Shown here in pieces: positions 6,424-49,517 of a DNA stretch of 64,000 nucleotides (within the stretch, counting starts at the first letter, position 1; each line of letters begins with the position of its first letter). Under the pieces are notes generated by a model. That model was not told the origin of the DNA, ran no database searches, and saw nothing but the letters and a program-made list of their open reading frames with translations. Location of the stretch: the NCBI GenBank assembly GCA_043808095.1, contig JAZDFF010000042.1, positions 38,667 through 102,666 on the forward strand, written 5' to 3'. The position numbers and the translations under genes are program-made. This DNA comes from Candidatus Omnitrophota bacterium (GTDB lineage: Bacteria > Omnitrophota > Gorgyraeia > JAZDFF01).

Positions 6424-6514
6424 CCCTGCCTCACCGGCCCTTAGGAATTTTACATTGTAAAATTCCAAGGACTAAGTCCCGGAAATTCTCCGAATTTCTC
6501 GGGGCAGGCAGGGA
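6424..6514. repeat. ~90-nt palindromic repeat element (family C), copy 1, inverted relative to copies 2 and 3
   Basis: Near-identical to 30260..30355 and 49429..49517. Core CCGAGAAATTCGGAGAATTTCCGGGACTTAGTCCTTGGAATTTTACAATGTAAAATTCCTAAGGGCC, bracketed by CCTGCCTG.../...CAGGCAGG arms. Confidence 0.9.
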
Positions 6515-6671
6515 CAACCTAAGACGAATATCGACACCTTGGCTGTTGTGATATAGATTGTAAACACATCTCTTGAATTATACACGTAGTCGAACCATTA
6601 GGATTTCGGCACTTCGACTTTGCTCAGTGCCGATGGTGAGCGAAGTCGAACCATCGGATTTAGGATTTTAA

Positions 6672-8393
6672 CTAATTCGCTATAAACCCGCCTTTAATCA
6701 TCTCTTCAATTAACTGTCGGGATAAGGTGACTGCCGCTTGGCTGCCTCCGCCGTGCTCTAATAAAACTACAAAGACATACCGAGGATTCTCAAAAGGGAA
6801 AAAACCCGAAAACCAGGCATGAGGTTTTCCGGAACCTACCTGGGCAGTTGCGGTTTTTCCGGCGATCTTTAGATTATCAAACTTCAGGCAATTTGCTGTC
6901 CCCCGGGAATCCTCGACCACCCTTAATAAGCCGCTTTTTACCGTCGCCAATATACTCTTATCGAGGCCAAGGTTTATTGGTAGTGGCCGGACTAAGGCCT
7001 TGTTATCTACAGTCCTTATTATATGAGGCGTGATTAAATACCCGCCGTTAGCCACAACTGCTATCATCCTCACCATCTGGAGGGGACTAACTAAGACCTC
7101 ACCCTGACCAATGGAAAGATTGGCAGTATCACCATCATACCAATGCTCACCTCGGCTTGATAGCCTCCATCTTCGGGAAGGTATAAATCCGCTGGATTCA
7201 TTTGGTAGCTCAATTCCCGTAGGCCGACCAAATCCTAGTTTTGTGGCCCAATTATAAATAGCGTCCGGGCCGGCCAAAATACCCAACCGGTAAAAAAAGG
7301 CATTGCAGGAGTGGCACAAGGCATCTTCTATATTCTCATCGCCATGCACCGACCAACAGGAAAATTTCCTCTGACCAACAATCAAACCGCCTGTACATAA
7401 AAAATTCGTATTTTTTGAAATCTTCTTTGTGCTTAATCCTGCGAGGGATGTAACTATTTTAAATAAAGAACCTGCACTGTAGCGGCCGCTTATGGCCCGG
7501 TTTAATAAAGGCGCATCAGAATTATTCAAAATCAGTCGGCGCCTGGCTAACGAATCCCGATTTTTCTGGCTAAAGATGTTGGGGTCAAAACCCGGAGAAC
7601 TAACCAGGCTCAATATCTCTGCGCTTGTCGGGTCCATAACAATAATTGCACCGGTTTTACCCTCAAGGAGATTGTAGCAGATACGCTCTAGGTCAAGATC
7701 AATAGTCAACTGCACATCTTTTCCTCTTTGAGGCAGTTTCGTACCCAAGACCCTGACTTGCCTTCCTAAATTGTCTACCTCAATCTGAGTACCTCCGCCT
7801 TCTGCGCGCAGATACGCATCTAATTTTTCCTCTATGCCATCGCAGCCCACCGTATCCTTAACTGAATAACCATAATTTTTTAATCTCGTAAGTTTAAAGG
7901 GGTCGATTTTACCAAGATATCCCAAGATATGGCTGGCTATCTTAAAATTAGGATAGGCACGCTGCGGATCTTGCTGGATGATAACGCCGTCCAACTCAAG
8001 ACTATTATTCTCTATGGCCACCGCCTCATCCCGGGAGATGTCTTGTTTTATCACTACTGGAGCAAAGGCAAGGCCGTACCCTTTTTGATATGCCTTGCTT
8101 AAATCAGACGGATCTTCAGCTAATATCTGGGCCAACCTTAAAAAAATATGATTTTTTTTGCTCAAACCCTGGGGGATCAAACTAAGATCAAAAGACATGC
8201 GGCTGGTTGCCAAAATCCTGCCTTTTCGGTCAAAGATATTGCCGCGCATTGCGCTCTGGGGAATAACGCGGATGGAGTTCTTGCGGCTAAGTTCTAAATA
8301 ATAGTGACTACGGATTACTTGGGTGTAAGATAGGCCCAGGAGCAGACTTAAAAAACAAATCAGGATGATTATCTCTAAAATTCTAAGACGCAT
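6672..8393 (-). CDS. mrdA: penicillin-binding protein 2 (elongasome transpeptidase)
   Basis: N-terminal TM helix, SxxK (SAGSLFK), SxN (SCN) and KTG (KTGTA) motifs. Sits between mreD and rodA. Confidence 0.9.
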   Translation of the reverse strand: MRLRILEIIILICFLSLLLGLSYTQVIRSHYYLELSRKNSIRVIPQSAMRGNIFDRKGRILATSRMSFDLSLIPQGLSKKNHIFLRLAQILAEDPSDLSKAYQKGYGLAFAPVVIKQDISRDEAVAIENNSLELDGVIIQQDPQRAYPNFKIASHILGYLGKIDPFKLTRLKNYGYSVKDTVGCDGIEEKLDAYLRAEGGGTQIEVDNLGRQVRVLGTKLPQRGKDVQLTIDLDLERICYNLLEGKTGAIIVMDPTSAEILSLVSSPGFDPNIFSQKNRDSLARRRLILNNSDAPLLNRAISGRYSAGSLFKIVTSLAGLSTKKISKNTNFLCTGGLIVGQRKFSCWSVHGDENIEDALCHSCNAFFYRLGILAGPDAIYNWATKLGFGRPTGIELPNESSGFIPSRRWRLSSRGEHWYDGDTANLSIGQGEVLVSPLQMVRMIAVVANGGYLITPHIIRTVDNKALVRPLPINLGLDKSILATVKSGLLRVVEDSRGTANCLKFDNLKIAGKTATAQVGSGKPHAWFSGFFPFENPRYVFVVLLEHGGGSQAAVTLSRQLIEEMIKGGFIAN

Positions 8394-8395
8394 GA

Positions 8396-8902
8396 TTATT
8401 TGAAAGAGATAAAAAGCGGCTGCCTGGCTACTGGCTTAAGCACCTTCTTCAAGACGACGAATATTAAAGGTAGGATAACAACAGTATAAATAGCCGAAGG
8501 CAATATGGTATAAACCAATGCCCTTAAAAAGATTAAATCTGTGTAGAATATCTTGAGAATGAAATAATGGGCGATTTCATAGATTAAAACCGATAATGAT
8601 CCAATAAGAATTTTGGAAGTCGTGGTTTCTTTATAGAGGTATTTATTAAGATAACCCAGGACTAAACCGAGCAGCCCGAGACTCAAGGTATTTATTCCGA
8701 ATAAATCGACACTTAAGAGATCCTCTAAAACCCCCGCCAGGCATCCGTAGAGACCCGCCTCCTGAGGGGGACAGTTAAGCCCAAGATAAATTATAAGTAT
8801 TATCGAAAGATTCGGCTTTATATTATTAAAAAACACACCCAAACCTAAGGCCTCAAGAAAGACGAAGACCACCAACAGGATAAATACTTTTAATCTATTC
8901 AT
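8396..8902 (-). CDS. mreD: rod shape-determining protein MreD
   Basis: Small polytopic membrane protein immediately downstream of mreC, overlapping its end by 8 nt. Confidence 0.75.
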   Translation of the reverse strand: MNRLKVFILLVVFVFLEALGLGVFFNNIKPNLSIILIIYLGLNCPPQEAGLYGCLAGVLEDLLSVDLFGINTLSLGLLGLVLGYLNKYLYKETTTSKILIGSLSVLIYEIAHYFILKIFYTDLIFLRALVYTILPSAIYTVVILPLIFVVLKKVLKPVARQPLFISFK

Positions 8903-9677
8903 TAAGAACGACTATGACCTCTTCGAGTTTGGAAAAATCGACTGCAGGTTTAATGAGGGCGATTTTATTTAGGCCGCTTGCATCAAGCTCTACAGACTTA
9001 ACCTCTCCGATCAGTATCCCCCTGGGGAATGAACCATTTAACCCGGAACTGATAACCAAATCTCCTGATACTACATCGCTATCTTTATCCAGATAATACA
9101 TCTGGCAAAAACCTGAGAGCCTGCCTGAGATTATGCCTTGCTCGCGGCTACGCTGGATAAGGGCAGCGATCTTCAAATTCGGGTCGTTGATTAAAATAAC
9201 CTTACTGCTTGAGTCTCCGGTTTCAAAAATCTTCCCTACCGCGCCACCGGGCGATATGACTGCACAGTCTTTGCGGATATTATCGTTATTGCCTCTATCA
9301 ATAATCAGACTGAAAAACCAGTTGATAGGGTCTCTGCCAATTACCCTTGCAACCGTACTGCGAAAAGATTGAGCCCTGCGAAAAGAAAGAATTTTACTTA
9401 GGCGTTCGTCCTCTTTCAGGATTTCCAGATTGATAATCTTTTTTTGTCTTGTCCAGCCTAATTGCCTTTTTAAGGCGAGGTTTTCTTTTAGGATTGCTCG
9501 ATAGGAAAAAATGGACTTTATCTCGTTTATAAAAAAATTGATAGGCCTTAATGGCAGGCTTAAAAAATCCAGAGATTTTGCTCTCACTATTTGGAATTGC
9601 TTTTGCAGGAAGGTAAAGACTAAGGCAAGAACTACTACGACAAGAAATACCGCAATTAATTTTTTATATTTAGCCAC
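8895..9677 (-). CDS. mreC: rod shape-determining protein MreC
   Basis: N-terminal TM helix, a coiled-coil segment and a C-terminal beta domain (GDLVISSGLNGSFPRGILIGEV). Located between mreB and mreD. Confidence 0.85.
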   Translation of the reverse strand: MAKYKKLIAVFLVVVVLALVFTFLQKQFQIVRAKSLDFLSLPLRPINFFINEIKSIFSYRAILKENLALKRQLGWTRQKKIINLEILKEDERLSKILSFRRAQSFRSTVARVIGRDPINWFFSLIIDRGNNDNIRKDCAVISPGGAVGKIFETGDSSSKVILINDPNLKIAALIQRSREQGIISGRLSGFCQMYYLDKDSDVVSGDLVISSGLNGSFPRGILIGEVKSVELDASGLNKIALIKPAVDFSKLEEVIVVLNE

Positions 9678-9695
9678 TCAATAATATAAAACAAA

Positions 9696-10781
9696 TTATA
9701 ATTCAGACCTAAGAGGAACAACTACTCGTTTTAAGTATTTTATCTCATCTAATACTTTGCCAGTACCCAAGGCAACAGCAGTAACCGGATCGTCAGACAA
9801 GTGTACAGTCAAACCCGTCTCTTCAGAAACGAGTTTGTCGATATTGCGAAGCAATGAAGTACCGCCGGCAAAGACAATGCCTTTATCAATTAAGTCTGCT
9901 GCCAATTCTGGGGGGATTCTTTCCAAGGTAATCTTGATCGTCTCTAAGATTGCCCGAATAGGCTCTTTAAGCGCATCCCTCACTTCTTCTGAGGTGATAG
10001 TCACTTTCTTGGGTAAACCGGCAACCAGGTCTCTTCCTTTAACCTCAAGACTCATCTCTTCATCTAAAGGATAGGCCGAACCAATCTTTATCTTGATATC
10101 TTCGGCAGTACGTTCGCCAATCATGAGATTATAATTCTTCTTCATATACTCAGTGATGGCTAAATCCATTTCATCGCCGCCAATACGAATGGATTTAGAG
10201 AATACTATCCCGGCTAAAGAGATGACGGCAATCTCAGTTGTGCCTCCGCCAATATCAATAATCATATTCCCTGATGGCTCTTCGATGGGTAGGCCTACGC
10301 CAATGGCCGCAGCAATCGGCTCTTCAATTAAATAGACTTTTCGGGCTCCGGCACGCTCTGCCGAATCTATAACCGCCCGTTTTTCTACCTCGGTAATTCC
10401 TGAAGGGATAGCAATTACTAGCCTAGGAGGAACCATTACCCGGCGTTTATGCAGATTCCTGACCTTTTTGATAAAATAACGCAGCATCGCCTCAGTGACT
10501 TCGAAATCCGCAATCACGCCGTCTTTCATCGGCCTGATAGCAACGATATTTCCGGGAGTACGTCCCAACATACGCTTTGCCTCTTCACCAACTGCCAGGA
10601 CATTGGAAGTCCCTTTTTCTATGGCTACTACCGAAGGCTCGCACAAGACAATGCCATCGCCTTTTACATAAACCAAGGTAGTAGCAGTGCCCAAATCAAT
10701 GCCCATATCGTTAGAGAACGCCTCGCTAAAAAACTCAAGGGCTTTTTTGCCCACATTAAGTATTTTTTGAAATTTAACCAT
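9696..10781 (-). CDS. mreB: rod shape-determining actin homologue MreB
   Basis: Actin/Hsp70 fold signatures: [28 protein letters not shown] and [17 protein letters not shown]. Confidence 0.95.
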
Positions 10782-10836
10782 ACTTACTCCTGTTCTGGTA
10801 ATATATCAGACTCCAAACTTACTGTCAATTAAAATC

Positions 10837-12207
10837 TTAGGTAGTATTAGGGCCTGCTTTGATTTTATTGAGGGCGCCCGCAAAATCCGGAAAGGATTTA
10901 GTGATGCAGCTGATATCATCCAACTCTGTTTTACCTTTGGCAGCCAGTCCCGCAATAATCATGCTCATCGCAGTGCGATGGTCTTCGTAACTAAGTACTT
11001 TTGCTCCTTCTAAAATACCACGGCCTGAAATTACAATTTCTTCTTGCTCTTGAATCTTTACTTTGGATCCGTGCTGTTTTACTTTGCGTACCTTTATATG
11101 GGCTCCCATAAGACTTAAGTTTGTAACCATAGAATTAATCCTGTCAGTTTCTTTAACCCTTAACTCCTCCACTCCCCGAATAACTGTATCACCCTTGGCA
11201 AAACATGCCGCAACCATAACAATAGGCAACTCATCAATTATGGCCGGGATCTCAAGACTTTCTATGGTTGTCGGCTTTAGGCGGCTGGACTTTACCAGGA
11301 TATCAGCAATCGGCTCAGAGCCAATGATTACACAGGGATGATTAAACAAGCGGATATCCGCGCCCATCCTCTTTAAGACATTTAAAATGCCTGTGCGGGT
11401 TGGGTTTACGCCTACAGATCTAAGCAAAATTTCTGAGCCGTCAATGATGGCAGCTGCAACCATAAAAAATACCGCTGAGGAGATATCCGAAGGAACCTTA
11501 ATCAGGCGGGGTGAAAATAATTCCTTACCGCCTCTTATGTTCACCTTAAGCGTATCAATATGGATATCCACGCCAAAAATCTTGAGCATCCTCTCGGTGT
11601 GGTCTCGGGACTGGATTACTTCACTAACTACTGTTGTCCCTTTAGGATATAAACCAGCTAATAAAATCGCAGATTTGACCTGGGCGCTGGGAACGGACAA
11701 TTTATATTGGATGGGCTTTAGACTCCTTCCCTTTATCTCCAAGGGCGCAAATTCCTCGGTTTTATTTTTGGCTTTTTTAACTTTGGATTTTATCTTGGCA
11801 CCCATAAGTCGCAAGGGTTCAATTACCCTTTTCATTGGTCGACTCGATAAGGATTTGCCGCCTTTTAAAACACTCTTAAAATCTTGAGCAGACAACAAAC
11901 CAGAAAGTAAGCGCATGGAGGTTGCGGATTCTCCCATATCCAGCTGTCTTTTTGGCGCATTGAGACCGCCTAAACCCACCCCATTAACTAAAACAAAGGA
12001 GGATTCCGTCTTTATCTTTACTCCCATCGAAGAAAATGCATTAATAGTACAAATGCAATCATCGCTAAACAAAAAGTTTTCAATGCGAGTATCTCCTTTA
12101 GAAATGGAACTGAGGATTATGGCACGGTGGGATATTGACTTATCGCCCGGTAGTGAAAGTTTTCCCCTCAGGCTCGTTATGGGATGAACGAGATATTTTT
12201 GCGGCAT
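10837..12207 (-). CDS. aroA: 3-phosphoshikimate 1-carboxyvinyltransferase (EPSP synthase)
   Basis: LSLPGDKSISHRAIILSSIS N-terminal signature and EPSP synthase length. Contains a lysine-rich internal insertion. Confidence 0.9.
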   Translation of the reverse strand: MPQKYLVHPITSLRGKLSLPGDKSISHRAIILSSISKGDTRIENFLFSDDCICTINAFSSMGVKIKTESSFVLVNGVGLGGLNAPKRQLDMGESATSMRLLSGLLSAQDFKSVLKGGKSLSSRPMKRVIEPLRLMGAKIKSKVKKAKNKTEEFAPLEIKGRSLKPIQYKLSVPSAQVKSAILLAGLYPKGTTVVSEVIQSRDHTERMLKIFGVDIHIDTLKVNIRGGKELFSPRLIKVPSDISSAVFFMVAAAIIDGSEILLRSVGVNPTRTGILNVLKRMGADIRLFNHPCVIIGSEPIADILVKSSRLKPTTIESLEIPAIIDELPIVMVAACFAKGDTVIRGVEELRVKETDRINSMVTNLSLMGAHIKVRKVKQHGSKVKIQEQEEIVISGRGILEGAKVLSYEDHRTAMSMIIAGLAAKGKTELDDISCITKSFPDFAGALNKIKAGPNTT

Positions 12208-12212
12208 GAAGA

Positions 12213-12983
12213 TTACGGTTTGGTTACTCGACAGCCTTCTTTAATCTGATCTTTTTGGATTGGGGGTAAGAAATTGGCAGCAGAGAGTGCTTCGTAAACC
12301 TTTTCAACTTTTAATTTACCGATGGATTTATCTTTATTATTGTAGACAGTAAACATATCGCCAACACTTATACCTGCTTTTCTTCCGAAATTGACGATGG
12401 CAAAATCATATTCCCGGTTTACGCTCAAAATCTTTCCTTCTAAAATTCCAGCCCGCGATGCCTCGCTAGAAGAACTCTGTTTGACTACAATCTTCTCAAG
12501 CTGCACTCCCTCCGAGGACTTGACTTCTAAATCCTTAATCTTGGCCTCTAAATCTTTCTTGATATTATTCAGGTTCTCGAGTTCTTTTGATTTAGCCTCT
12601 AAATCGCCCTTGGCCTTTTCTAATTGTTTAAAGACATCTTCGCGGGTTGACTTTTCCTGTTTCAATTGCGCCTCGAGACCATTTATTTCAATGCTTAATT
12701 TATCTTTATTGGTCTTTTCAGTCTGAAGTTCGCCTGAAGCAGCGGCAAGCTGGGTATTGGCATCGGTTAATTGCACCTGCAGTCTATCCACCTCTTCCTT
12801 AGTCGACTGTAAGTTCTTGTCTAAATTACTTCTCATCGCCTCAAGACTCTGCGACTTTGCCTCCAGCGATTTTCTCTTATCGATCTCCTGTTTTAGGAGA
12901 TAACCTGCGCCTACGGCAAGGCCCAGAGAAATAAAGGTTACTAATACCAAAAGACCAACTAAAACCTTTGCGCTAGAACCCAT
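12213..12983 (-). CDS. hypothetical membrane-anchored coiled-coil protein with small C-terminal beta-rich domain
   Basis: N-terminal TM helix (VLVGLLVLVTFISLGLAVGAGYLL), ~150 aa of heptad-like Q/E/K/L-rich sequence, and a C-terminal ~70 aa segment (ILSVNREYDFAIVNFGRKAGISVGDMFTVY...). I do not recognise any family. Confidence 0.5.
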   Translation of the reverse strand: MGSSAKVLVGLLVLVTFISLGLAVGAGYLLKQEIDKRKSLEAKSQSLEAMRSNLDKNLQSTKEEVDRLQVQLTDANTQLAAASGELQTEKTNKDKLSIEINGLEAQLKQEKSTREDVFKQLEKAKGDLEAKSKELENLNNIKKDLEAKIKDLEVKSSEGVQLEKIVVKQSSSSEASRAGILEGKILSVNREYDFAIVNFGRKAGISVGDMFTVYNNKDKSIGKLKVEKVYEALSAANFLPPIQKDQIKEGCRVTKP

Positions 12984-13085
12984 CTTTGAACCTCCTTCGA
13001 CTGACTCCGCTCTCCCACTATATCAAGTGAAACGAATCACTCTTTTTTAGTGATTTTAATTATTATAACATAATAAGAATGGATT

Positions 13086-14728: not shown

Positions 14729-14769
14729 TTTATTTAAACTCTAGCCTCAAAATAACACAACTACTGAGA

Positions 14770-21631: not shown

Positions 21632-21678
21632 GTCTGCCTGCCGGCAGGCAGGAATTTTCCCGCTTTGCGGGATCCCGC
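21632..21678. repeat. composite: family B palindrome TCTGCCTGCCGGCAGGCAGG plus family A REP (inverted)
   Basis: The family B palindrome recurs at 58950..58968 and 62318..62342. Its arms also bracket each 90-nt family C element. Confidence 0.85.
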
Positions 21679-21757
21679 TAGATTTGTTTTATATTTTGGT
21701 GCGGGACGTATTTCGTGCTTCGAATTTATGTGCTGTCCTTTTCTAAGTCAGCTTAAG

Positions 21758-22508: not shown

Positions 22509-22610
22509 CAGCGGGATCCCGCAAAGCGGGAAAATCAGATTACAGAGATTCATGTTAGTCAATAAATCACTGTAATCTTTTCTAAAATCGCCGTAATCAA
22601 CAGCCCAAGA
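22509..22610. repeat. family A REP followed by family D (GATTACAGnGATT / AATCACTGTAATC inverted pair)
   Basis: Family D also occurs at 23404..23495, 30222..30234, 42742..42827 and 48256..48339. Confidence 0.85.
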
Positions 22611-23403: not shown

Positions 23404-23495
23404 TGATTACAGTGATTTTTCCCGCCACAAAGATTGGCGGGTCCGCCAAAGCATTATGGCGGAAAAACCGATTACAGCGATTAATCACCGGAATC
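23404..23495. repeat. family D REP pair flanking GC hairpins (CCGCCAAAGCATTATGGCGG)
   Basis: GATTACAGTGATT ... GATTACAGCGATTAATCACCGG. The inner hairpin also appears at 49399..49419. Confidence 0.8.
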
Positions 23496-30165: not shown

Positions 30166-30259
30166 TTTAATCTCCCTTTCATTAAAAACAGTCCTTCACG
30201 AAATTAACCTAAAGGGCTGTTGATTACAGCGATTTAGCCTCGAGTTTTAATCCTTGAAT

Positions 30260-30355
30260 CCCTGGCTGCCCCGAGAAATTCGGAGAATTTCCGGGACTTA
30301 GTCCTTGGAATTTTACAATGTAAAATTCCTAAGGGCCGTCAGGCAGGTATTTTTT
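30260..30355. repeat. ~90-nt palindromic repeat element (family C), copy 2
   Basis: Same sequence as 49429..49517. Sits in the recA-degP gap. Confidence 0.9.
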
Positions 30356-30451
30356 GATCTCTGTAATCAAGGGCGAAACGATACTTCGATTTCACTCAGT
30401 ATTCGTCCTGAGCTTGTCGAAGGACGAATTTGTGAAGCCCTATTAAAAAGA

Positions 30452-31489: not shown

Positions 31490-31736
31490 ATTGGGTCCTC
31501 CTTAAAAATTAACCTTATTTAAAAATGAAGGGTTTTCTCCAGGGTTAGGGAATGTATTATACAATATCAAAATTCTAATGTCAATGGTTCGATTGTACTC
31601 ACCATTGATACTGAAACCCTCAACTTCGTTCGGGATGGTGAGCAAAAGGCGAACCAGAGGAATAATGAGCCTGTCGAACCACGAAGTTGAATGTATCAAA
31701 CAGGATTTATACCTTAAAATGGCTGCCAAACACCTC

Positions 31737-31765
31737 TTGACATAAGCAGAATTTTATGTTAAAGT
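31737..31765 (+). promoter_or_regulatory. putative sigma70-like promoter for the GAF-GGDEF gene
   Basis: TTGACA (31737..31742), 17-nt spacer, TAAAGT (31760..31765). If real, the CDS starts at the second Met (31798). Confidence 0.3.
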
Positions 31766-32988
31766 CCCTGCTTATATACCTTAATCAAAACTTGACCATG
31801 CTAAATAACAATATCAATAAAAGTGATATCGAATACGAACTGGAAAAAACTAGATTAGAGCTCTCCATCCTTTATGAGATCTCGAATGCGATGCGCCGCA
31901 CTTTAAAGCTCGATGAGATCCTCTATATCATCTTGACCGGTGTCACCTCCCATGTGGGATTAGGGTTTAACCGGGCGATGTTACTTTTAGTGGATGAAGG
32001 CAGCCAATTCTTAGAAGGCAAGATGGGTATTGGACCAGATACAGGTGATGAGGCAGGCCGCATCTGGAGGCATATTGAGGCTAAGGATATGAAACTCGAG
32101 GATTTAGTTAATGCCTACGAGGCCTCGGGAAAGATGTTTGATTCTCAGTTCAACCGACTGGTACAGAGTTTTAGAATTCCCTTAAAAGAAGACGGCGGAA
32201 TCCTTGCTATTACCGCCTTGGATGACCGACCTATGCATATAAAGAAACAATCCGATGCCTTCTACGATAATGAACCAATCCTAAAAAAATTAAATACCCA
32301 GGAATTTGTCACTGTGCCTTTAAGGGCTAAAGACAGTGTAATTGGTGTGATTCTAGCAGACAACATCTTTACTCAAAGAGAGATTACTAAAGATGATATC
32401 GAGATACTTACATTGTTTTCCAACCAGGCAGGCCTGGCAATCGAAAATTCCCGTCTGTATGAAAAGACCTTAATCAAGACAAATATTGATGCCTTGACCG
32501 GCCTGTGGAACCATGGTTATTTCCAGTTTAAACTTAACGAGGAAATAAAAAAGGTAAAAGAACAAACTCATCCCCTAAATCTAATTATGATAGATATTGA
32601 TTACTTTAAGAATTATAATGATGGCCTAGGACATCAAGAAGGAGACCGCATCTTAGTAGAGATAGCTAAGGTCTTAAAGGATTCTTCGAGAAAATCAGAT
32701 TATGTATGCAGATATGGTGGTGAGGAATTTGCTATAATCCTGCCGCAGACGACAAAACAGGAGGCGCTCTTACTTTCGGAAAGAATTAGGCAGCATGTCC
32801 AGAATCATCGTTTTAAACATGAAGAAATCCAGCCAGAAAAAGAAATCACGGTAAGTATTGGCCTGGCGACTTTTCCTGAAGACGCACAAACAAAAGATCA
32901 GCTTATTTCTTGCGCGGATACTTCGCTTTACGAGGCTAAAAAGACGGGAAAAAACAAAGTCTGTTATTACTCTGCAGTAAAAATCTAA
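31756..32988 (+). CDS. cytoplasmic GAF-domain diguanylate cyclase (GGDEF with canonical RYGGEEF and RxxD I-site)
   Basis: GAF-like N-terminal region. DALTGLWNHGYFQ...RKSDYVCRYGGEEFAIILP has both an intact active site and an I-site. The true start may be the second Met at 31798, because the first ATG overlaps the putative -10. The 3' end overlaps the smc 3' end convergently by 4 nt. Confidence 0.85.
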   Translation: MLKSLLIYLNQNLTMLNNNINKSDIEYELEKTRLELSILYEISNAMRRTLKLDEILYIILTGVTSHVGLGFNRAMLLLVDEGSQFLEGKMGIGPDTGDEAGRIWRHIEAKDMKLEDLVNAYEASGKMFDSQFNRLVQSFRIPLKEDGGILAITALDDRPMHIKKQSDAFYDNEPILKKLNTQEFVTVPLRAKDSVIGVILADNIFTQREITKDDIEILTLFSNQAGLAIENSRLYEKTLIKTNIDALTGLWNHGYFQFKLNEEIKKVKEQTHPLNLIMIDIDYFKNYNDGLGHQEGDRILVEIAKVLKDSSRKSDYVCRYGGEEFAIILPQTTKQEALLLSERIRQHVQNHRFKHEEIQPEKEITVSIGLATFPEDAQTKDQLISCADTSLYEAKKTGKNKVCYYSAVKI

Positions 32989-38019: not shown

Positions 38020-38043
38020 CTTAAAATAAGTAAATCCATTTTA

Positions 38044-38187
38044 CACAGATGGGCACAGATTATCCCGCACCAAAATAAAAAAAATCCAGCGGGATCCCGC
38101 TATGGCGGGAAAAGAAACAGATGGGCACAGATATTTCTCGTCGGAATCTGTGCTAATCTGCGAGCCTTTCATCTGTGCTAATCTGTG
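38044..38187. repeat. family F repeats (ACAGATGGGCACAGAT and ATCTGTGCTAATCTG units) with an embedded family A REP
   Basis: ACAGATGGGCACAGAT at 38044..38060 and 38117..38132. ATCTGTGCTAATCTG x2 at 38146..38187. Same units at 47030..47150. Confidence 0.85.
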
Positions 38188-38208
38188 AAACATTATTTTT
38201 AATGTTTA

Positions 38209-41218: not shown

Positions 41219-41227
41219 TTTAAATGA

Positions 41228-41277
41228 GCCCCTGCTGATTCGCTTTGATGAGCAAAGCGAATCAAAGCGGCAGGGGC
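41228..41277. repeat. family H 50-nt nested perfect hairpin
   Basis: GCCCCTGC-TGATTCGCTTTG-ATGAGC-AAAGCGAATCA-AAGCG-GCAGGGGC. Outer 8-bp stem around an inner 11-bp stem. Copy 2 at 60064..60110 is inverted. Confidence 0.9.
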
Positions 41278-41447
41278 GAATTTAACCCCCACTGTTTCGT
41301 TTTGGTTCGTTTTGTACCTAGAAATCGCTTTGCGATTTCAGGGATTAAATCCCGGAAATGCTTCGTATTTCACGGGACTTCACCAAAAGCGAAACAAAAC
41401 GGTGGGGGTAAGTTCGGACTGATCCCGACGGTACCGTCGGGATGTCC

Positions 41448-42680: not shown

Positions 42681-42741
42681 CTTATTTTCTCCACATTTAA
42701 TCTATTATAATAGGCTGTCACGAAAATCGTTCCAGCCTAAT

Positions 42742-42827
42742 GATTCCAGTGATTTTGAATAAGATTCCAGTGATTATCTCAATGACAAGCTGAATCGCTG
42801 TAATCTATTTGCCTAATCACAGTAATC
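42742..42827. repeat. family D REP cluster (two direct plus two inverted units)
   Basis: GATTCCAGTGATT x2, then AATCGCTGTAATC and AATCACAGTAATC. Confidence 0.85.
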
Positions 42828-42891
42828 AAGCGCGGAACTTTTGTGACGCCCTATTTATTATAAATTCAAGTGTTTAATTTTACAAGAAAAA

Positions 42892-45138
42892 TCAACGGGA
42901 AATATTCTGAGTTTCAATCATTTTAATGCTGCCTTTCGCCTCAATGTTATCCGGCTGGAGCCTAAGAACTTCTCTGTATTCTTTTAAAGAGCCGGTATAA
43001 TCGCCATTCTTATACAATATCTCTGCCAGGTCTTTATGGTAAAGCGGGTTTTGCGAAGAAAGGCCAAGCGCCTTCTTTAGATATTTGATGGCATTGGGGT
43101 AATCTTTCGCCTTGGCATAAGCCAGGGCTAACCTATGATAAGCAAGGTGGCTTTCGGGCGCCTTTTTTACTATCTGCCTTAAGATGGATATCGCCTTATC
43201 AAGGCGGCCGAGCTCTGAATAACAAGAGGCCAAATCAATCTCTATGCCTAAATTACTGCGCGATATGATGTGCGCAAGCCTGAGATGTTCAAATGCCTGC
43301 ATAAATTGCCTTTTGCGAAACAGGATATTCCCCATTGCGCTATGATAGACGAAAGACCCTGGGCTAATTTTTCGTATCTCATTTATCTCGGAGACGGTTG
43401 CATCATCTAGCTGCAACATCTCTAAGATGTGAGCGCGCCTTGCATAGGGATACGGATCAACCCTGTTTATGCCGAGCCTTATTAAGTCAATCTTGGACGC
43501 CCTCCAATCCTTGAGATCAAAGGCGAATTTTTCAATTAAGTCCTTATTACCGGCTGAATCCTTCAAAAATATAATAGCACTCTCATCAAAATATACGGTC
43601 TTAAAATCCTTGTCTTTATAGAGAGTCTTAATTAAGTTTACCTCGTCTGAAGGAACGCCGGTTATGAAAAACCCATCGATATGGAATTTCTCAACCAGAT
43701 TCTCAATCGCTTTTTTATCTGCCCGCATGAGGGAGTCGTAATCCTTAAAAAATCTCGGGCCGTAAAGTTCTGTCCTTCCATCGATAAATACCTGCCTCCG
43801 GGGAAAACACCTTCCGATAAGATAAGACCCGGAATTAAAATCGTTAAATAACCGCTTGGGAAGATTATTTCTTAAAACAAAATCCACGGCTTTTTCAGGA
43901 TAGGCCTTTCCGGAAAGACCCCAAAGTTTTCCCTTAATTTCATATTTGTCAAAAAGGAAATAACCGCTACTAAAAACATAAGTTATCGCGGTTTTAGAAA
44001 TCCAGACAATAAATAAAATCTTAAAAGTTATGCTCAATAAATGTTTCAATTTATGGCCCGAGTCTTTTATTTTCACGAAATTTCGCTCGTAAAATATTTC
44101 ATCAATATCATTTAAGTTCTCCATCAAAATAACGCCGGAAAATACAGTAAAAAACATTACATTTCGGGCATACCTAAGCGAAAGAAACAGCAATAAAACC
44201 CAGACGAGCGTATCGAATATCTTTATTCTCCTATAATTGATTAGAATGGTAGCGAGTGTTAAAACGATAAGATAAAAATAGAAAGAAAAATCAAAGTTAT
44301 ATTTATTCTGTAGCACAATCGGAGAGATAAGCTCCACTATGTTTTCAAATGCTTGAGAAGGCCTTGTAATGGAACTAATTATTACCTTAACCGGATAGAA
44401 TAAACCTTGATAGGTATATGGATTGATGAGGCATGCCGATAATAAGACAAAGAATAGTAAGATCAATTTCGAAAAATGCGTTTTAGGATGTATTCTTAAG
44501 GCCGATTTTTTACTTAAAACCGGAATACGGGCCTGGATGAATTCGCTGATTAACAATATTAAAACCAATATTGGCCCCACGATAAAATAACCGTGCATAT
44601 TCACCCAAATTATCTGAATAGGAATTAACCAAAAGACTTTTTTCGTATCAAGAAATTTCTTTAAGATTATCAGGAAAAAGAGGAAAAATAAGACCGAAAA
44701 AACATCTGGCCTTATATTTATCCTGGTCCTGGAGGCAAAAAGGCTAAGCAATAAAGCAGTGATAATGATAATGTGGTTATCCTTTTTTGAGCCAAAGACC
44801 AGCATGACCCAAAAGATGAGGCAGATAAAAAACGACTGGACGAATATTATCCCGGAGGCATCATATTTCTGATAGATAAGATAGGTAATAACCTGAAACA
44901 GCCAGGAATGGTCTATCCATGGCCTTGAACTTAAGGCAAAGGAAAACGGGTCACACCTGGGCACGGCGTGATTTCCTACGATTAACTCTCCCGTTTTAAG
45001 GTGTAACCAGATATCGGGATCGGCTATCTCTGAATTTGTATAAATTACGATGTAGAGAAAAAGCGCAACAATGCATAAAAATCCCAGGAAATGGCTGATA
45101 GGCCCTAGCTTATTTTCTATAATTTTAATAGTGACCAT
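42892..45138 (-). CDS. large polytopic membrane protein with C-terminal TPR repeats (GT-C glycosyltransferase-like architecture, function unassigned)
   Basis: More than 10 predicted TM helices over the N-terminal ~430 aa. C-terminal ~200 aa carry TPR-like repeats (AYHRLALAYAKAKDYPNAIKYLKKAL...). Confidence 0.55.
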   Translation of the reverse strand: MVTIKIIENKLGPISHFLGFLCIVALFLYIVIYTNSEIADPDIWLHLKTGELIVGNHAVPRCDPFSFALSSRPWIDHSWLFQVITYLIYQKYDASGIIFVQSFFICLIFWVMLVFGSKKDNHIIIITALLLSLFASRTRINIRPDVFSVLFFLFFLIILKKFLDTKKVFWLIPIQIIWVNMHGYFIVGPILVLILLISEFIQARIPVLSKKSALRIHPKTHFSKLILLFFVLLSACLINPYTYQGLFYPVKVIISSITRPSQAFENIVELISPIVLQNKYNFDFSFYFYLIVLTLATILINYRRIKIFDTLVWVLLLFLSLRYARNVMFFTVFSGVILMENLNDIDEIFYERNFVKIKDSGHKLKHLLSITFKILFIVWISKTAITYVFSSGYFLFDKYEIKGKLWGLSGKAYPEKAVDFVLRNNLPKRLFNDFNSGSYLIGRCFPRRQVFIDGRTELYGPRFFKDYDSLMRADKKAIENLVEKFHIDGFFITGVPSDEVNLIKTLYKDKDFKTVYFDESAIIFLKDSAGNKDLIEKFAFDLKDWRASKIDLIRLGINRVDPYPYARRAHILEMLQLDDATVSEINEIRKISPGSFVYHSAMGNILFRKRQFMQAFEHLRLAHIISRSNLGIEIDLASCYSELGRLDKAISILRQIVKKAPESHLAYHRLALAYAKAKDYPNAIKYLKKALGLSSQNPLYHKDLAEILYKNGDYTGSLKEYREVLRLQPDNIEAKGSIKMIETQNISR

Positions 45139-45227
45139 CCTTTAATGAGCACTTGATTTAGGAAACCTGTAAAGGCGACATAAATCAATCCTTATTGTAA
45201 TACTGTTTTTTATTTATGCCAATTGGA

Positions 45228-45252
45228 CCCTTGACATCAGAGATGTCAAGGG
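45228..45252. repeat. family J palindrome, copy 2
   Basis: CCCTTGACATCAGAGATGTCAAGGG. Confidence 0.85.
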
Positions 45253-45279
45253 TTAATTCAGCCAGACGACTTAGCTTCA

Positions 45280-46230
45280 CTATCGTTCGCTAAGTCGCGG
45301 CCTCATTAAGAAATTATCCGCAAAATGACAGGCAGAAAAATGACCGGCCTCTTTCTCTTCCAGGGCCGGCTCACTATGTCTACAGATATCCTTGACGTAT
45401 AAACAGCGGCTGTTAAAACGACAGCCCTCCGGAATATTAGTGTTTGAGGCTACCTCCCCTTTTAAGACCACGTTTTTGTCAGCTGCTGCTGAAATCAGGG
45501 CCTGGGTATAGGGATTTAAGGGCACAGAAAACAGCCTTTGAGCCGATGCCAGTTCTAAAATTTTACCTAAATACATCACAGCTATTATATCACTAATTTT
45601 TCTAACTATCCTTAAATTATGTGAAATAAAAAGATAACTAATGCCGAACCTATCTTTTAGGTTGCTAAGCAATTCTATAATCCTGGCCTGTAAAGAGACA
45701 TCCAGGCTAGACACCGCCTCATCAAGGATTAACAATTTTGGCATTACTATTAAGGCGCGCGCCAGATTTATCCTCTGGCATTGGCCGCCGCTAAATTCAA
45801 AGGAGAAGCGCCTGTCGATATCTTTGGCCAGACCCACTGTCAGGAGCTGTCTTTCTATATCCTGGTTGGTCATTTTAGACTTGATTGCCCCTGCTGCTTC
45901 AAGCAAGGTCTTTCTTACCGTAAAACGCGGGTCCAGGCTACTGTAAGGGTCTTGAAAGATAATTTGTATAAGGCGCCGATACGGCCTGAATTGGGCCTGA
46001 GATAATCTGGTTAAATCCAGGCCATTAAAGGTGATTACGCCTTGATCAGGTCTTATTAACTTTAAGACCATCTTAGCCAGGGTGGTCTTTCCGCAGCCGG
46101 ACTCTCCTACGATACCTAAGGTTTGATTTTCTTCAAGAGCCAGGCTTACTCCGTCAACGGCACGAGCCAGACCGCCTTTTTTCGTGGGAAAATATTTCTT
46201 TAGGTTTTTTATTTCTAACAAGGTATTCAT
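45280..46230 (-). CDS. oppF: oligopeptide/dipeptide ABC transporter ATP-binding protein (OppF/DppF-like)
   Basis: Walker A GESGCGKTT, signature LSGGQCQR, and a C-terminal Cys-containing Opp-type extension. Confidence 0.85.
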   Translation of the reverse strand: MNTLLEIKNLKKYFPTKKGGLARAVDGVSLALEENQTLGIVGESGCGKTTLAKMVLKLIRPDQGVITFNGLDLTRLSQAQFRPYRRLIQIIFQDPYSSLDPRFTVRKTLLEAAGAIKSKMTNQDIERQLLTVGLAKDIDRRFSFEFSGGQCQRINLARALIVMPKLLILDEAVSSLDVSLQARIIELLSNLKDRFGISYLFISHNLRIVRKISDIIAVMYLGKILELASAQRLFSVPLNPYTQALISAAADKNVVLKGEVASNTNIPEGCRFNSRCLYVKDICRHSEPALEEKEAGHFSACHFADNFLMRPRLSER

Positions 46231-47012
46231 CAGATAAGTGACGCCTCAATGAGGTTTTTAGTATAGGGATCTTGGGGGTTATTAAAGATATCGTCTCGTG
46301 GTCCTGTTTCAATGATCCTGCCATCTTTAATAATGGCAATCCTGTCGGCGATAAAACTCACTATGCTTAAATCATGGGTGACTAATAAAATAGAAATGCC
46401 TAATTCTTGTCGTAGTTTCTTAAAAAGATTCAGGATCTGGACCTGGATAGTGACATCCAGGCTGCTTGTGGGCTCATCTGCAAGAAGTATTTTAGGACGG
46501 CAGGCCAGCGCCTGGGCAATCATTGCCCTTTGCCTCATCCCGCCGCTTAACTGATGAGGATAGCGAAAGATGACTTCAGCCGGCTGAGGCAGTCCAGTTT
46601 TAAAAAACAGCTCTAAGGTCATATTTCTGGCTTCCTTTTTGGAAATCCTTAAATGAAAGATAAGTGTCTCCATAATTTGATTTCCGATATTAAATACCGG
46701 ATTTAAGGCCAATAATGGCTCTTGAAAGACCATGCCGATTTCTCTGCCTCTAACATTGAGCAATTCTTTTTCTGACAATTTTAAGAGGTCTTTTCCTGCA
46801 AAATATATACTGCCTCCTGAAATCTCACCGCCTTCTGGTAAAAGTCCTAAGATAGACATACAGGTAACGGTCTTGCCGCTGCCGGATTCACCAACCAGGG
46901 CAAAAATTTCAGATTTATTTATGCAAAGACTAAGGCCGCGAAGGGCCGCAACATATCCTTCTTCAGTGCTAAAGCCGGCTTTGAGGTTTTCTATTCTTAA
47001 TAGTTCTTCCAT
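46230..47012 (-). CDS. oppD: oligopeptide/dipeptide ABC transporter ATP-binding protein (OppD/DppD-like, short form)
   Basis: Walker A GESGSGKTV and signature LSGGMRQR. It lacks the usual C-terminal extension. Confidence 0.85.
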   Translation of the reverse strand: MEELLRIENLKAGFSTEEGYVAALRGLSLCINKSEIFALVGESGSGKTVTCMSILGLLPEGGEISGGSIYFAGKDLLKLSEKELLNVRGREIGMVFQEPLLALNPVFNIGNQIMETLIFHLRISKKEARNMTLELFFKTGLPQPAEVIFRYPHQLSGGMRQRAMIAQALACRPKILLADEPTSSLDVTIQVQILNLFKKLRQELGISILLVTHDLSIVSFIADRIAIIKDGRIIETGPRDDIFNNPQDPYTKNLIEASLI

Positions 47013-47029
47013 CTATCTAGCATAGAAAT

Positions 47030-47150
47030 AAAATTGGTACACAGATGGGCACAGATTGATAGTCTAAATCATCCTGTTTTTCACAGATTAGAACAGATTA
47101 TCTGTGCTAATCTGTTCTTTCCATCTGTGATAATCTGTGCATTTTTTTAC
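47030..47150. repeat. family F repeats in the oppC-oppD gap
   Basis: ACAGATGGGCACAGAT at 47030..47045, then CACAGATTAGAACAGATTATCTGTGCTAATCTG...CATCTGTGATAATCTGTG. Confidence 0.85.
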
Positions 47151-48232
47151 GATGATTTAAAGACCATCTTCATACGCGGGTCAAACGCATCGCGCAGTCC
47201 CTCGCCTAAAAGATTAAAGGCCATCACTGTAATAAAGATAAAAACTCCCGGCAATAATATCCACGGATAGAATTTAATTGCCGAGATATTCATGGCATCG
47301 CTCAATAAATTTCCCCAACTAGCCTGGGGGTCCTGAATTCCCAGGCCGATAAAACTTAGGCCGGATTCACCCAATATATAACCTGGTATGGACAAGGTTA
47401 AGGCAACAATGGCATAAGACAGTGTATGCGGCAATATGTGCCTTAAGATTATCTTCAGGTCACTTATACCCAGGACCCGGGCCGCCAAGACAAACTCCCT
47501 CTCTTTAAGCGACAGGCTTATCCCTCTTATGACCCGCGCCATACCCGCCCAGCCAATAAAGGAAAGAATAAAGATTAAAAGTAAAAATACCTGTGTTGAG
47601 CTTAAATTTGTCGGGAATGCCGCTCTTAATGCCAGCATAAGATAAAAACCCGGTATCATCATCACCATCTCACAGAGTCTCATAATAAGGTTATCGATTC
47701 TACCGCCGTAATATCCGGAAATTCCTCCTATTAATAAACCGATTAAAAATGAAACGCTTACCCCGATTATGCCGATAGACAAAGAAACCCTGGCTCCATA
47801 AAGGATACGGCTATACAAATCCCGGCCGCGGCTGTCTGCTCCGAATAAATAAAGCCTACCTGCCGAATCTAGCCCCAAAAGATGCAAGTCAGTCTTAAAA
47901 AGCCCTAAGAATTTATAACCGTCGCCTCTAGCCAAAAGGTTTAAATGAAAAACCTGGGATTTATCTTCTTTATAGACCCTCTGGTAATACTGGTTAAAAG
48001 AAAACGAATACCCGTACACGAACGGCACCAGATGAAATTTACCCTGGCCATCTACAAAATTTATTCTTGTAGGCGGGCAGAAAGAGAAGTTGCGTTCTTC
48101 GTTATCATAATTATAGACTGATAAAAAATCCGCGAATATTGCCACCAGATACAAGGATACAACTACCCATAGGCATAATAGGGCAATCTTATTCTGTTTA
48201 AACTTATCCCATAAAAAATTAGGCCTATTCAT
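47147..48232 (-). CDS. oppC: peptide ABC transporter permease (OppC/DppC-like)
   Basis: Six-TM permease with EAA-like loop, plus the N-terminal extension typical of OppC. Confidence 0.85.
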   Translation of the reverse strand: MNRPNFLWDKFKQNKIALLCLWVVVSLYLVAIFADFLSVYNYDNEERNFSFCPPTRINFVDGQGKFHLVPFVYGYSFSFNQYYQRVYKEDKSQVFHLNLLARGDGYKFLGLFKTDLHLLGLDSAGRLYLFGADSRGRDLYSRILYGARVSLSIGIIGVSVSFLIGLLIGGISGYYGGRIDNLIMRLCEMVMMIPGFYLMLALRAAFPTNLSSTQVFLLLIFILSFIGWAGMARVIRGISLSLKEREFVLAARVLGISDLKIILRHILPHTLSYAIVALTLSIPGYILGESGLSFIGLGIQDPQASWGNLLSDAMNISAIKFYPWILLPGVFIFITVMAFNLLGEGLRDAFDPRMKMVFKSS

Positions 48233-48255
48233 ATGCTCTATAAATAATTAAGTAT

Positions 48256-48339
48256 GATTACAGAGATTATTAAATAGATTCCAGTGATTATTTTATAAAA
48301 GTTAATCACTGTAATCTTTATTTGAAATCACCGTAATCA
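48256..48339. repeat. family D REP cluster (two direct plus two inverted units) in the oppB-oppC gap
   Basis: GATTACAGAGATT, GATTCCAGTGATT, AATCACTGTAATC, AATCACCGTAATC. Confidence 0.85.
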
Positions 48340-48356
48340 ATACATTTAATTCATAA

Positions 48357-49322
48357 TTACGCATATCTTATCCTCGGGTCTGACCAGGCGAGCAAAATGT
48401 CGCTAGTTAAATTTCCGAAAAGCAACAGGACGCCGCTTATGAGCATACCTGCCATTACTAAAAATAAATCCTGGGCCCTGACCGCAGTCAACATCACCAT
48501 ACCTAAGCCAGGCCAATTACAGACAATCTCAATAAGTGCTGCGCCGCTTAAGAGATCGGATAACTGATAACCAAAGATAGTAATTAACGGATTAATGGCA
48601 TTACGCAGGGCATGTTTATAAATAACTTTGTTTTCAGGCAAACCTTTTGCCCGGGCACAGAGTATATATTGCTGGCGAAGCACCTCCAGGACATTCGCTC
48701 GCATGATCCGCTGAAGCGAACCGATTCCGGAAATGGCAATAACCGAAGCAGGCAGAATCAGGTGTCTTAGGATATCAAAGGCCTTATTTATTCCGGATAA
48801 TGAATCAAAATTTGTAGAACGCATCCCGCCTAAAGGAAGCAGGCCGCTTACATTGGCCAGATACAAGCCGATTAACCCCAGGAAAAATCCCGGCATGGAT
48901 AGACCGAATAGGGACAGGACTGAAAATAATCTATCGATAATTCGATTGTGTTTTAAGGCTGCATATATCCCAAGCGGAATAGCTAAAAGCCACGTAAGAG
49001 CAAGTGAAGCAAGGGCCAAGATTATAGTATTAAAGGCCCTGCTAAATATTACTTTAGATACCGGACAGTTATAAAAGAACGAGTAACCCAAGTCCAGCCG
49101 AAAAATCCCTTTCAACCAGTAAAGATATTGGACGATAACCGGCTTATCCAGGTGGAAAGCGGCCTGGTATTTTAAAATAGTCTCTTCGGAAATCTGGGGG
49201 TTTAACCTCAGGCTATCAAAATAATTTCCCGGTGCAAGGTGGATAAACAAAAAAGTAACAAAAGACATGACGAGAAGCAAGGGAACAGCGATAATGATTC
49301 GTCTTATTATATAGGTTTTCAT
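48357..49322 (-). CDS. oppB: peptide ABC transporter permease (OppB/DppB-like)
   Basis: BPD-transporter fold and EAA-loop region ARAKGLPENKVIYKHALRNA. Confidence 0.85.
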   Translation of the reverse strand: MKTYIIRRIIIAVPLLLVMSFVTFLFIHLAPGNYFDSLRLNPQISEETILKYQAAFHLDKPVIVQYLYWLKGIFRLDLGYSFFYNCPVSKVIFSRAFNTIILALASLALTWLLAIPLGIYAALKHNRIIDRLFSVLSLFGLSMPGFFLGLIGLYLANVSGLLPLGGMRSTNFDSLSGINKAFDILRHLILPASVIAISGIGSLQRIMRANVLEVLRQQYILCARAKGLPENKVIYKHALRNAINPLITIFGYQLSDLLSGAALIEIVCNWPGLGMVMLTAVRAQDLFLVMAGMLISGVLLLFGNLTSDILLAWSDPRIRYA

Positions 49323-49428
49323 TTTTAAAGCAGAATCAAATAAATATTAAAAATGTCTAATTACTAATGTCGTCCACCACTGAATCTTTGGTGGACGCCC
49401 GCCAAAGCATTGTGGCGGGCGAATGTCG

Positions 49429-49517
49429 CCTGCCTGCCCCGAGAAATTCGGAGAATTTCCGGGACTTAGTCCTTGGAATTTTACAATGTAAAATTCCTAA
49501 GGGCCGGTGAGGCAGGT
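49429..49517. repeat. ~90-nt palindromic repeat element (family C), copy 3
   Basis: Same sequence. Sits in the oppA-oppB gap, preceded by an extra GC hairpin CGCCCGCCAAAGCATTGTGGCGGGCG (49395..49421). Confidence 0.9.

Follow-up and report, generated by a model that had tools for sequence, protein, structure and literature searches.

Here, we describe a short structured element that recurs in the intergenic spacers of a 64-kb stretch of a Candidatus Omnitrophota metagenome-assembled genome (MAG); this whole stretch is hereafter called the window, and copy counts refer to these 64 kb. The core of the element, 67 nt long, is identical in three copies and diverged in a fourth, and it consists of two inverted units of ~30 nt, each made up of a GC-rich foot of 4 bp, a single unpaired base and an upper stem starting G-R-A-A-W-T. 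[quoted passage not shown] The element is not an RNA gene, and mobility is attributed to the 67-nt core rather than to the 88-nt block that the core forms with its flanking arms.

Results

The first-pass annotation of this DNA had reported three near-identical structured copies, one of them inverted, in the mrdA-rodA, recA-degP and oppA-oppB gaps, and alignment confirmed this description. The core is identical in all three copies, copy 1 lies opposite to the other two, copies 1 and 3 are 100% reverse-complementary over 88 nt, and the flanking genes agree by Pfam (PBP2 and RodA; an HtrA/DegP-like protease and RecA; an SBP_bac_5, OppA-like protein and an ABC permease; Table 1). The near-perfect 23-nt palindrome described in the core, GGAATTTTACAATGTAAAATTCC, was likewise found in all three copies, compared to 0.00 occurrences expected from shuffles of the window. 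The OppA-like gene (49518-51254, - strand) has its stop codon 1 nt from the end of copy 3. As annotated, no real open reading frame (ORF) overlaps any copy. The count of three stands for the near-identical copies but overlooked a diverged fourth between a GlmU-like gene and a GNAT gene. Copy 4 keeps the two-hairpin layout, with the junction GGGATTTAATCCC, while the stem of its second hairpin differs (GAAATCGC/GCGATTTC).

The 88-nt block is predicted to fold into an outer stem, CCUGCCU/AGGCAGG, that encloses two hairpins. The RNA fold has an energy of -42.7 kcal/mol (z = -5.8), a stability matched by that of the opposite strand (-42.0 kcal/mol), and DNA parameters give the same fold at -24.3 kcal/mol (z = -6.4). 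Hairpin A (26 nt) is closed by a stem of 4 bp, with one bulged nucleotide on the 5' side and 7 bp in the upper stem; the GAGAAATTC/GAGAATTTC sub-repeat noticed earlier is real and corresponds to the two arms of this first hairpin. Separated from it by the linker ACUUA, hairpin B (36 nt) has an upper stem of 10 bp and a lower stem, with one bulged nucleotide on the 3' side, reads as RNA (GU)CCUU, GGAAUUUUAC, a 3-nt loop, GUAAAAUUCC, a bulged base and AAGG(GC), and holds the 23-nt palindrome.

Hairpin B mirrors hairpin A. The bulge is in the 5' arm of hairpin A and in the 3' arm of hairpin B, the upper stems of both start G-R-A-A-W-U, and GGGAC-TWA-GTCC, at the junction, also reads as a palindrome. 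The core scores 15 when aligned to its reverse complement, compared to -2.1 +/- 5.1 for shuffles (maximum 13 in 300), and the covariance model described below matches both strands of the element. From this mirror relation and the self-alignment score, it follows that the core consists of one REP-like unit, doubled in inverted orientation. Single (non-doublet) units were also looked for in the window with a hairpin descriptor, which gave 16 matches (shuffle mean 3.9), 9 of them inside the four elements, and recovered only the four doublets and chance-level matches inside genes.

Relatives of the element were identified by one exact-pattern scan each of genome and metagenome collections and then with a covariance model (R1) built from 10 distinct cores; with filters off, R1 recovers diverged copies, and the diverged subtype can be described by sequence patterns such as CGGGACTNAGTCCYTGAAAT. 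Family members are present in Candidatus Omnitrophota MAGs (L003 and L004, with a second copy in each by R1), in Scalinduaceae MAGs (L001, L002 and L005) and related metagenome contigs (L022 and L026), in a Planctomycetia MAG (L007), on unbinned metagenome contigs (L014, L016, L017, L023, L024, L025 and L028), and on phage-like IMG/VR contigs (L053, L055 and L058) that encode DUF5131, DUF1353, ParB_N and DNA methylases. The whole 88-nt block recurs in L024, L025, L028 and L003. The window itself derives from an Omnitrophota MAG, with RecA and RodA 100% identical to NCBI proteins encoded on a 218-kb contig of such a MAG. Some of the copies on phage-like contigs have a hairpin A shrunk to a 5-bp stem, and such contigs may be a route by which the family passes between phyla. 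Metagenome matches to the bare palindrome GAATTTTACANTGTAAAATTC (L006, L008-L013, L015, L018-L021, L027, L029 and L030) turned out to be unrelated sites and were not counted as family members. In L012, L018, L019, L020, L021 and L027 (metagenome Ga0209679), this palindrome is located ~50 nt upstream of an ORF that starts with MVSGRKKCKSE; it resembles an operator and has no relation to the hairpin doublet.

Folding and covariation across the copies show that the fold is kept with many compensatory stem changes. In the alignment of the 10 distinct cores, 97.4% of cells are paired, compared to at most 63% when partners are slid by 1-3 columns, and 5 pairs have double (compensatory) changes, in 18 cells. 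All 14 of the 14 distinct variants fold as bulged hairpin, linker and bulged hairpin, and compensatory changes occur at >=10 stem positions, in every stem segment. The upper stem of hairpin B is even wholly replaced among variants (GGAATTTTAC, GAAATCGC, GAAATTGC, GGAATTT, GGAAATC). Invariant bases sit in the stems and the junction, while loop bases, the mid-linker and the identity of the bulge vary. This pattern is expected of hairpins recognized by a protein and is the opposite of that of riboswitches and ribozymes. On the canonical strand, the frequency of G.U pairs is close to that of A.C mismatches (the latter in copy 4 and L014), and the alignment thus carries no strand signal.

The arms that enclose the core have a history of their own. 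Copies 1 and 3 consist of CCTGCCTG, the core and CCGGTGAGGCAGG; the arms of copy 2 have 3 changes relative to these, with CCTGGCTG replacing CCTGCCTG and CCGTCAGGCAGG replacing CCGGTGAGGCAGG, and arms vary among copies 1-3 although the cores are identical. Empty versions of the palindrome had been annotated at 21632, 58950 and 62318. All three exist, the last one 10 nt from the position given (Table 1). The outer palindrome around copy 4 is unrelated in sequence to the CCTGCCTG arms, and a core-less palindrome akin to it occurs in L016 at 576-625. The L004 core is enclosed by yet another outer inverted repeat, the L016 core also is without CCTGCCTGCC arms or in an unrelated palindrome, and no convincing outer inverted repeat was found around the cores in L007, L014, L023, L001, L053 and L058. 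The CCTGCCTG.../...GGCAGGCAGG arms are a separate palindrome family that acts as a host site and are not the ends of the element. The idea that the CCTGCCTGCC arms are terminal inverted repeats (TIRs) had to be given up, with cores found without them or in other palindromes and arms found alone with the same asymmetry as in filled copies (62328-62348). Because the arms are not the TIRs of the element, looking for a transposase with CCTGCCTGCC ends would mislead.

The core itself ends in CCCC.../...GGG(G), i.e., in a TIR of only 3-4 nt. Comparison of filled and empty sites permits a target-site duplication of 0 bp or of 2 bp (CC), which are indistinguishable because of the CC repeat at the junction. 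In copies 1-3, the 88-nt block has no flanking direct repeat.

All checked copies (21/21) are intergenic and they occur in both orientations; relative to the flanking genes, 5 are sense and 3 antisense. In the window, 51 of the 52 sizeable genes are on the - strand, with a GGDEF/GAF gene (31756-32988) as the exception; GC skew is negative across the whole window (1-64000).

Two comparisons document gain and loss. First, in a relative (L049) with an 85% identical RecA and the same gene order as in the window (SMC, GGDEF, recA, degP, recX, alaS), the recA-degP spacer is 43 nt long and without the element, while the spacer in the window is 286 nt long and a mosaic of four different short repeats, copy 2 among them. 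Second, L051 and L061 have 95% identical RodA proteins and are near-identical in the 80 nt upstream of rodA, after which they diverge; by covariance model, L051 has a family member upstream of rodA and L061 has none. Also, six contigs end inside or within a few hundred nucleotides of a copy, in line with the expectation for multi-copy repeats.

The first-pass annotation had left the choice between a MITE and a small structured RNA gene family. The element does behave as an ORF-free, structured, miniature mobile element (filled and empty sites, polymorphism, intergenic location, both orientations), but the analysis gave no support for the RNA gene. At the gathering score, the window had 0 matches to Rfam (release 15), and permissive mode with one window copy and the L001 copy gave only noise (<=21 bits, E >=0.2, up to E 10). 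A scan for tRNA and tmRNA found none. The copies have no promoter-like or terminator-like site in common, and their flanks are unrelated. Together with the mixed orientation, the variable loops and the gain or loss at 95% RodA identity, these results argue against a family of RNA genes.

In Scalinduaceae, the element is located 32 nt upstream of, and in the same orientation as, an ORF of 91-122 aa for a GIY-YIG protein (PF01541, E=4e-17), between a TTGACA-17-TAATAT promoter-like site and the GIY-YIG ATG, a leader element kept across species in Scalindua. A 458-nt block that comprises the promoter-like site, the element and the GIY-YIG ORF is present at least three times in one Scalinduaceae MAG. 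A general association with GIY-YIG genes was considered and rejected: the GIY-YIG genes in L014, L017 and five other lineages are without the element, and the window has no such gene. In L005, two copies of the block flank a nucleotidyltransferase-like gene just upstream of a MiaB-like gene, and a ~94-aa GIY-YIG gene is found directly upstream of a MiaB-like radical-SAM gene in several unrelated lineages (L005, L031-L045).

The spacers of the window are mosaics of at least eight short palindromic repeat families, including CGTC-tagged hairpins. The repeat AGCGGGATCCCGCAAAGCGGGAAAAT, made of two overlapping small palindromes, is present in four spacers, and one copy directly adjoins an empty CCTGCCTGCCGGCAGGCAGG palindrome. 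A hairpin repeat starting with CGTC, CGTCCTGAGCYTGTCGAAGGACG, is similar to REPs of the CGTC-tagged super-family (Di Nocera et al. 2013, PMC3733652), and two of its three copies share a spacer with the main element. The GATTACAG family (GATTACAGAGATT / AATCACTGTAATC / GATTCCAGTGATT) occupies six spacers, often as inverted pairs; the CACAGAT family (TACACAGATGGGCACAGATT / ATCTGTGCTAATCTGTG) has several direct and inverted copies per spacer; and a 54-nt palindrome, AATGAGCCCCTGCTGATTCGCTTTGATGAGCAAAGCGAATCAAAGCGGCAGGGGC, occurs twice, once beside copy 4, with a similar one in L016. Separately, two adjacent paralogous genes (333 and 340 aa; window 59043-61190) have stretches of 72-76% nucleotide identity.

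Table 1. Positions of the element, its parts, host palindromes and other repeats (window coordinates unless a contig is named)
Feature	Position	Strand	Remarks
Copy 1, 88 nt	6425-6512	-	PBP2-rodA spacer; core 6438-6504
Copy 2, 87 nt	30261-30347	+	recA-degP spacer; core 30269-30335
Copy 3, 88 nt	49429-49516	+	OppA-like gene/ABC permease spacer; covariance model 95.2 bits
Copy 3, 5' arm	49429-49436		CCTGCCTG
Copy 3, core	49437-49503
Copy 3, 3' arm	49504-49516		CCGGTGAGGCAGG
Copy 3, hairpin A	49438-49463	+	CCCG, bulged A, GAAATTC, loop GGA, GAATTTC, CGGG
Copy 3, hairpin B	49469-49504	+	GTCCTT, GGAATTTTAC, loop AAT, GTAAAATTCC, bulged T, AAGGGC
23-nt palindrome	6444-6466; 30307-30329; 49475-49497		GGAATTTTACAATGTAAAATTCC
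Copy 4, diverged	41312-41378	-	Covariance model 48.9 bits, E=3e-10
Long outer inverted repeat	41284-41408		CCCCCACCGTTTTGTTTCGCTTTTGGT ... AAAACGAACCAAAACGAAACAGTGGGGG; encloses copy 4; arms ~28 nt
Empty host palindrome	62328-62348		CCTGCCTCACCGGCAGGCAGG; reverse complement equals CCTGCCTG joined to CCGGTGAGGCAGG, the exact arms of copies 1 and 3 minus the core
Empty host palindrome	21633-21652		TCTGCCTGCCGGCAGGCAGG (TCTGCCTG joined to CCGGCAGGCAGG); equals arms of the filled copy in L024
Empty host palindrome	58951-58966		One arm truncated (CCTGCCTGCCGGCAGG)
458-nt block	L001 439-896; L005 6237-6693 and 7670-8000		Also in L002, L022, L026
Copies on phage-like contig L053	2514-2580
Copies on phage-like contig L055	8418-8484; 2705-2761; 788-867
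Copies on phage-like contig L058	16-82; 1447-1513; 1973-2026; 3353-3406		4 copies in 3.4 kb
AGCGGGATCCCGCAAAGCGGGAAAAT repeat	6209-6234; 21654-21680; 22509-22536; 38087-38102
CGTCCTGAGCYTGTCGAAGGACG repeat	6391-6414; 30404-30427; 31661-31684
GATTACAG family	22538-22606; 23405-23482; 30214-30234; 30357-30369; 42742-42805; 48255-48319
CACAGAT family	38042-38190; 47038-47140
54-nt palindrome AATGAGCCCCTGCTGATTCGCTTTGATGAGCAAAGCGAATCAAAGCGGCAGGGGC	41223-41277; 60059-60112		Similar one in L016, 576-625

Discussion

The element is close to the REPINs of P. fluorescens and E. coli, which are associated with REP-associated tyrosine transposases (RAYTs) (Bertels & Rainey 2011, PMC3116915; PMC3337134). 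As here, REPINs consist of two short imperfect inverted palindromes with a short spacer, are extragenic, multi-copy and ORF-free, have compensatory changes in their hairpins, differ in presence between close relatives, and fold on either strand. REP units are imperfect palindromes of 20-40 nt, and the two units described here measure 26 and 36 nt, each with a 1-nt bulge. They differ from REPIN units by the conserved single-base bulge per unit and by an AT-rich rather than GC-rich upper stem (GRAAWT). The mosaic spacers also recall the bacterial interspersed mosaic elements (BIMEs) of E. coli, in which several palindromic repeat families are likewise combined, although the sequences are different.

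Nesting in a palindrome has precedents. REP dimers centred in unrelated palindromes have been described for Thermomicrobium roseum (GTAG-23), Anabaena variabilis (GTAG-15) and Halothiobacillus neapolitanus (CGTC-1) (Di Nocera et al. 2013, PMC3733652), and the T. roseum genome in addition contains many empty targets, with the palindrome CCGSSCC n3-4 GGSSCGG (PMC3733652). The empty CCTGCCTGCCGGCAGGCAGG palindrome plays this role here. By contrast to those REP dimers, the units of our element are untagged and unrelated in sequence, and its copies occupy two or more host palindrome families within a single genome. The earlier statement that the copies do not look like a simple REP is half right: the core has the layout of a REPIN or REP dimer, and nested REP dimers are precedented (PMC3733652).

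The element also shares features with MITEs (Correia/NEMIS, ERIC, RUP, Nezha) and with the palindrome-associated transposable elements (PATEs) derived from the insertion sequence (IS) family IS200/IS605, which likewise are small (<200 bp), non-coding, structured, intergenic and mobilized in trans. MITE-like size, lack of an ORF and insertion polymorphism are all seen here (67-nt core, 88-nt block; L051 vs L061, window vs L049). With IS200/IS605 ends and PATEs in particular, it shares hairpins in subterminal position that carry an extrahelical base, the absence of a long TIR, and a (nearly) seamless junction. However, it differs from MITEs and PATEs in its TIR of 3-4 nt (CCCC/GGGG), the lack of a clear target-site duplication and the lack of a known parent insertion sequence. 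Moreover, PATEs have a fixed tetra- or pentanucleotide target in one orientation, while the left flanks of our element differ and its orientation is mixed, and the hairpins of IS608 are on the same strand, while the two hairpins of the element are on opposite strands.

Several observations weigh against a REP-like mobile repeat. First, no transposase is present among the window ORFs examined, and a tblastn search with IS608 TnpA and E. coli RAYT gave nothing in 380 kb, a weak test given the query sequences. Second, the left flanks of the core (CCTG, AAGT, TTCC, TTTT, GCTT, TCCT, TTTG, GCCT) have no consistent target oligonucleotide, and the nesting in palindromes could merely reflect the density of palindromes in these spacers. 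Third, neither GTAG nor CGTC, the tags that mark the two large REP super-families, is present in the hairpins, and membership in the GTAG/RAYT REP family is not established. Fourth, REPIN-RAYT systems are typically confined to one lineage and vertically inherited, while this family crosses phyla and phage-like contigs. Finally, an element of the same family is present upstream of rodA both in the window (copy 1) and in L051, whose RodA proteins are only 68% identical. This recurrence could hint at a local function, yet L061 is without the element at that site.

As a mechanism for a mobile REP-like doublet, we suggest the following scenario. In single-stranded DNA, e.g., at a replication fork, or in cruciform DNA, each unit would fold into a hairpin, and a protein encoded in trans would recognize the conserved stem and bulge and cut and rejoin the DNA. 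As a best guess, this enzyme would belong to the HUH/Y1 single-strand transposases (RAYT or IS200 type), a candidate class only. New copies would prefer the centres of existing palindromes, the apical loops of which may be exposed in single-stranded DNA; in this genome, the landing palindromes would be the CCTGCCTGCC/GGCAGGCAGG family and the longer CCCCCAC... family. Copies in operon spacers would be co-transcribed, and the predicted three-way junction may incidentally act as a barrier to 3' exonucleases, as in classical REPs.

Such a barrier could instead be the reason for which the sites are kept. In this explanation, which is unlikely but survives better than the others, the element is a host-domesticated structural site, either an RNA three-way junction that blocks 3'-5' exonucleases or directs processing and thereby tunes ratios within operons (oppA/permease, mrdA/rodA), or a site bound by a nucleoid protein or gyrase in its duplex or cruciform form, a role put forward for the REPs and BIMEs of E. 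coli. It would account for the high stability of the fold on both strands (-42.7 and -42.0 kcal/mol, z of approximately -6 to -7), for the location of every copy in a spacer between co-directional genes, for the start of copy 3 just 1 nt past the OppA-like stop codon and ahead of the permease gene, for the family member also present upstream of rodA in a relative with a 68% identical RodA, and for the element kept across species in the Scalindua leader of the GIY-YIG gene. The classical malE-malF and hisJ-hisQ REPs also lie between binding-protein and permease genes, as copy 3 does. However, the element is absent from the same spacer in a strain with a 95% identical RodA and from the 43-nt recA-degP spacer of a relative and, because of these absences, the sites are dispensable. 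Identical cores with differing arms point to recent copying and not to old conserved sites, and the stem is not followed by a T-run when read in gene direction. Moreover, such a function is compatible with a mobile repeat as a secondary effect and would not be an alternative origin.

Mobility could also depend on an enzyme other than a RAYT, e.g., a Slx1/YhbQ-like GIY-YIG nuclease or a phage-encoded enzyme, with spread between phyla by phages and homing into the apical loops of other palindromes; we regard this variant as rather improbable. Very unlikely is a small RNA gene family or a cis-regulatory RNA such as a riboswitch, which would act through its fold from one defined strand. The significant covariation with a fold kept across phyla, a few G.U pairs on the canonical strand, and the Scalinduaceae element in a 5' leader downstream of the TTGACA-17-TAATAT promoter-like site would fit an RNA. 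But Rfam gives noise only, flanks are unrelated and have no common promoter or terminator, orientation is mixed (5 sense vs 3 antisense), A.C mismatches are nearly as common as G.U pairs, presence differs between close relatives, and stems are conserved while loops and the mid-linker are free, as opposed to ligand-binding or catalytic RNAs.

Slx1-family GIY-YIG enzymes cut branched or hairpin DNA, and the element might be the cis site or RNA partner of a Slx1/YhbQ-like nuclease, the two forming a selfish pair of which solo cores are non-autonomous derivatives; the nuclease, being structure-specific, would cut the folded element and thereby drive its copying. The Scalinduaceae element 32 nt upstream of the GIY-YIG ORF, the repeated 458-nt block, and L014 and L017, which have both the element and a GIY-YIG gene 2-5 kb away, are in line with such a pair. 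Nevertheless, we consider it highly improbable. The 64-kb window has no GIY-YIG gene, the GIY-YIG genes of L014 and L017 are without an upstream element, and the homologues in five other lineages (68-77% identity) have none within 1.5-2 kb, with covariance-model filters off. The protein belongs to a 60-member cluster from many samples with 1-2 contigs each and is not multi-copy per genome, and the gene behaves as a resident because its synteny with the MiaB-like gene is conserved. Least probable of all is a classical 88-nt MITE bounded by CCTGCCTGCC/GGCAGGCAGG TIRs and derived from an insertion sequence with the same ends, which would fit the size, the lack of an ORF and the block repeated whole in the window, L024, L025, L028 and L003, but not the supposed TIRs found three times in the window as a solitary 20-nt palindrome, in one case with exactly the asymmetry of a filled copy, the cores without arms or in other palindromes, the variable arms around identical cores or the lack of direct repeats flanking the block.

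The range of the family, as a probable REP-like repeat, comprises Omnitrophota, anammox Planctomycetota and phage-like contigs. Relative to known REP-like repeats, the twists are modest, namely two phyla together with phage-like contigs, and at least two host palindrome families in one genome. The element provides a compact and defined substrate in uncultured phyla in which we found no such repeats described; the literature searched gave nothing on COG2827 RNA motifs or on repeats in Scalindua or Omnitrophota. The enzyme, if found, would tell whether untagged REP-like doublets use RAYT-type or other enzymes and how phyla are crossed, a result of use to research on bacterial repeats, although an incremental one. 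If mobility by a non-RAYT enzyme with homing into palindromes were true, the element would represent a class of hairpin-targeting mobile element distinct from REPINs. For the annotation of this Omnitrophota genome, the 88-nt blocks and the other palindromic spacer families are interspersed repeats and not RNA genes, and they explain why related metagenome contigs break at these positions.

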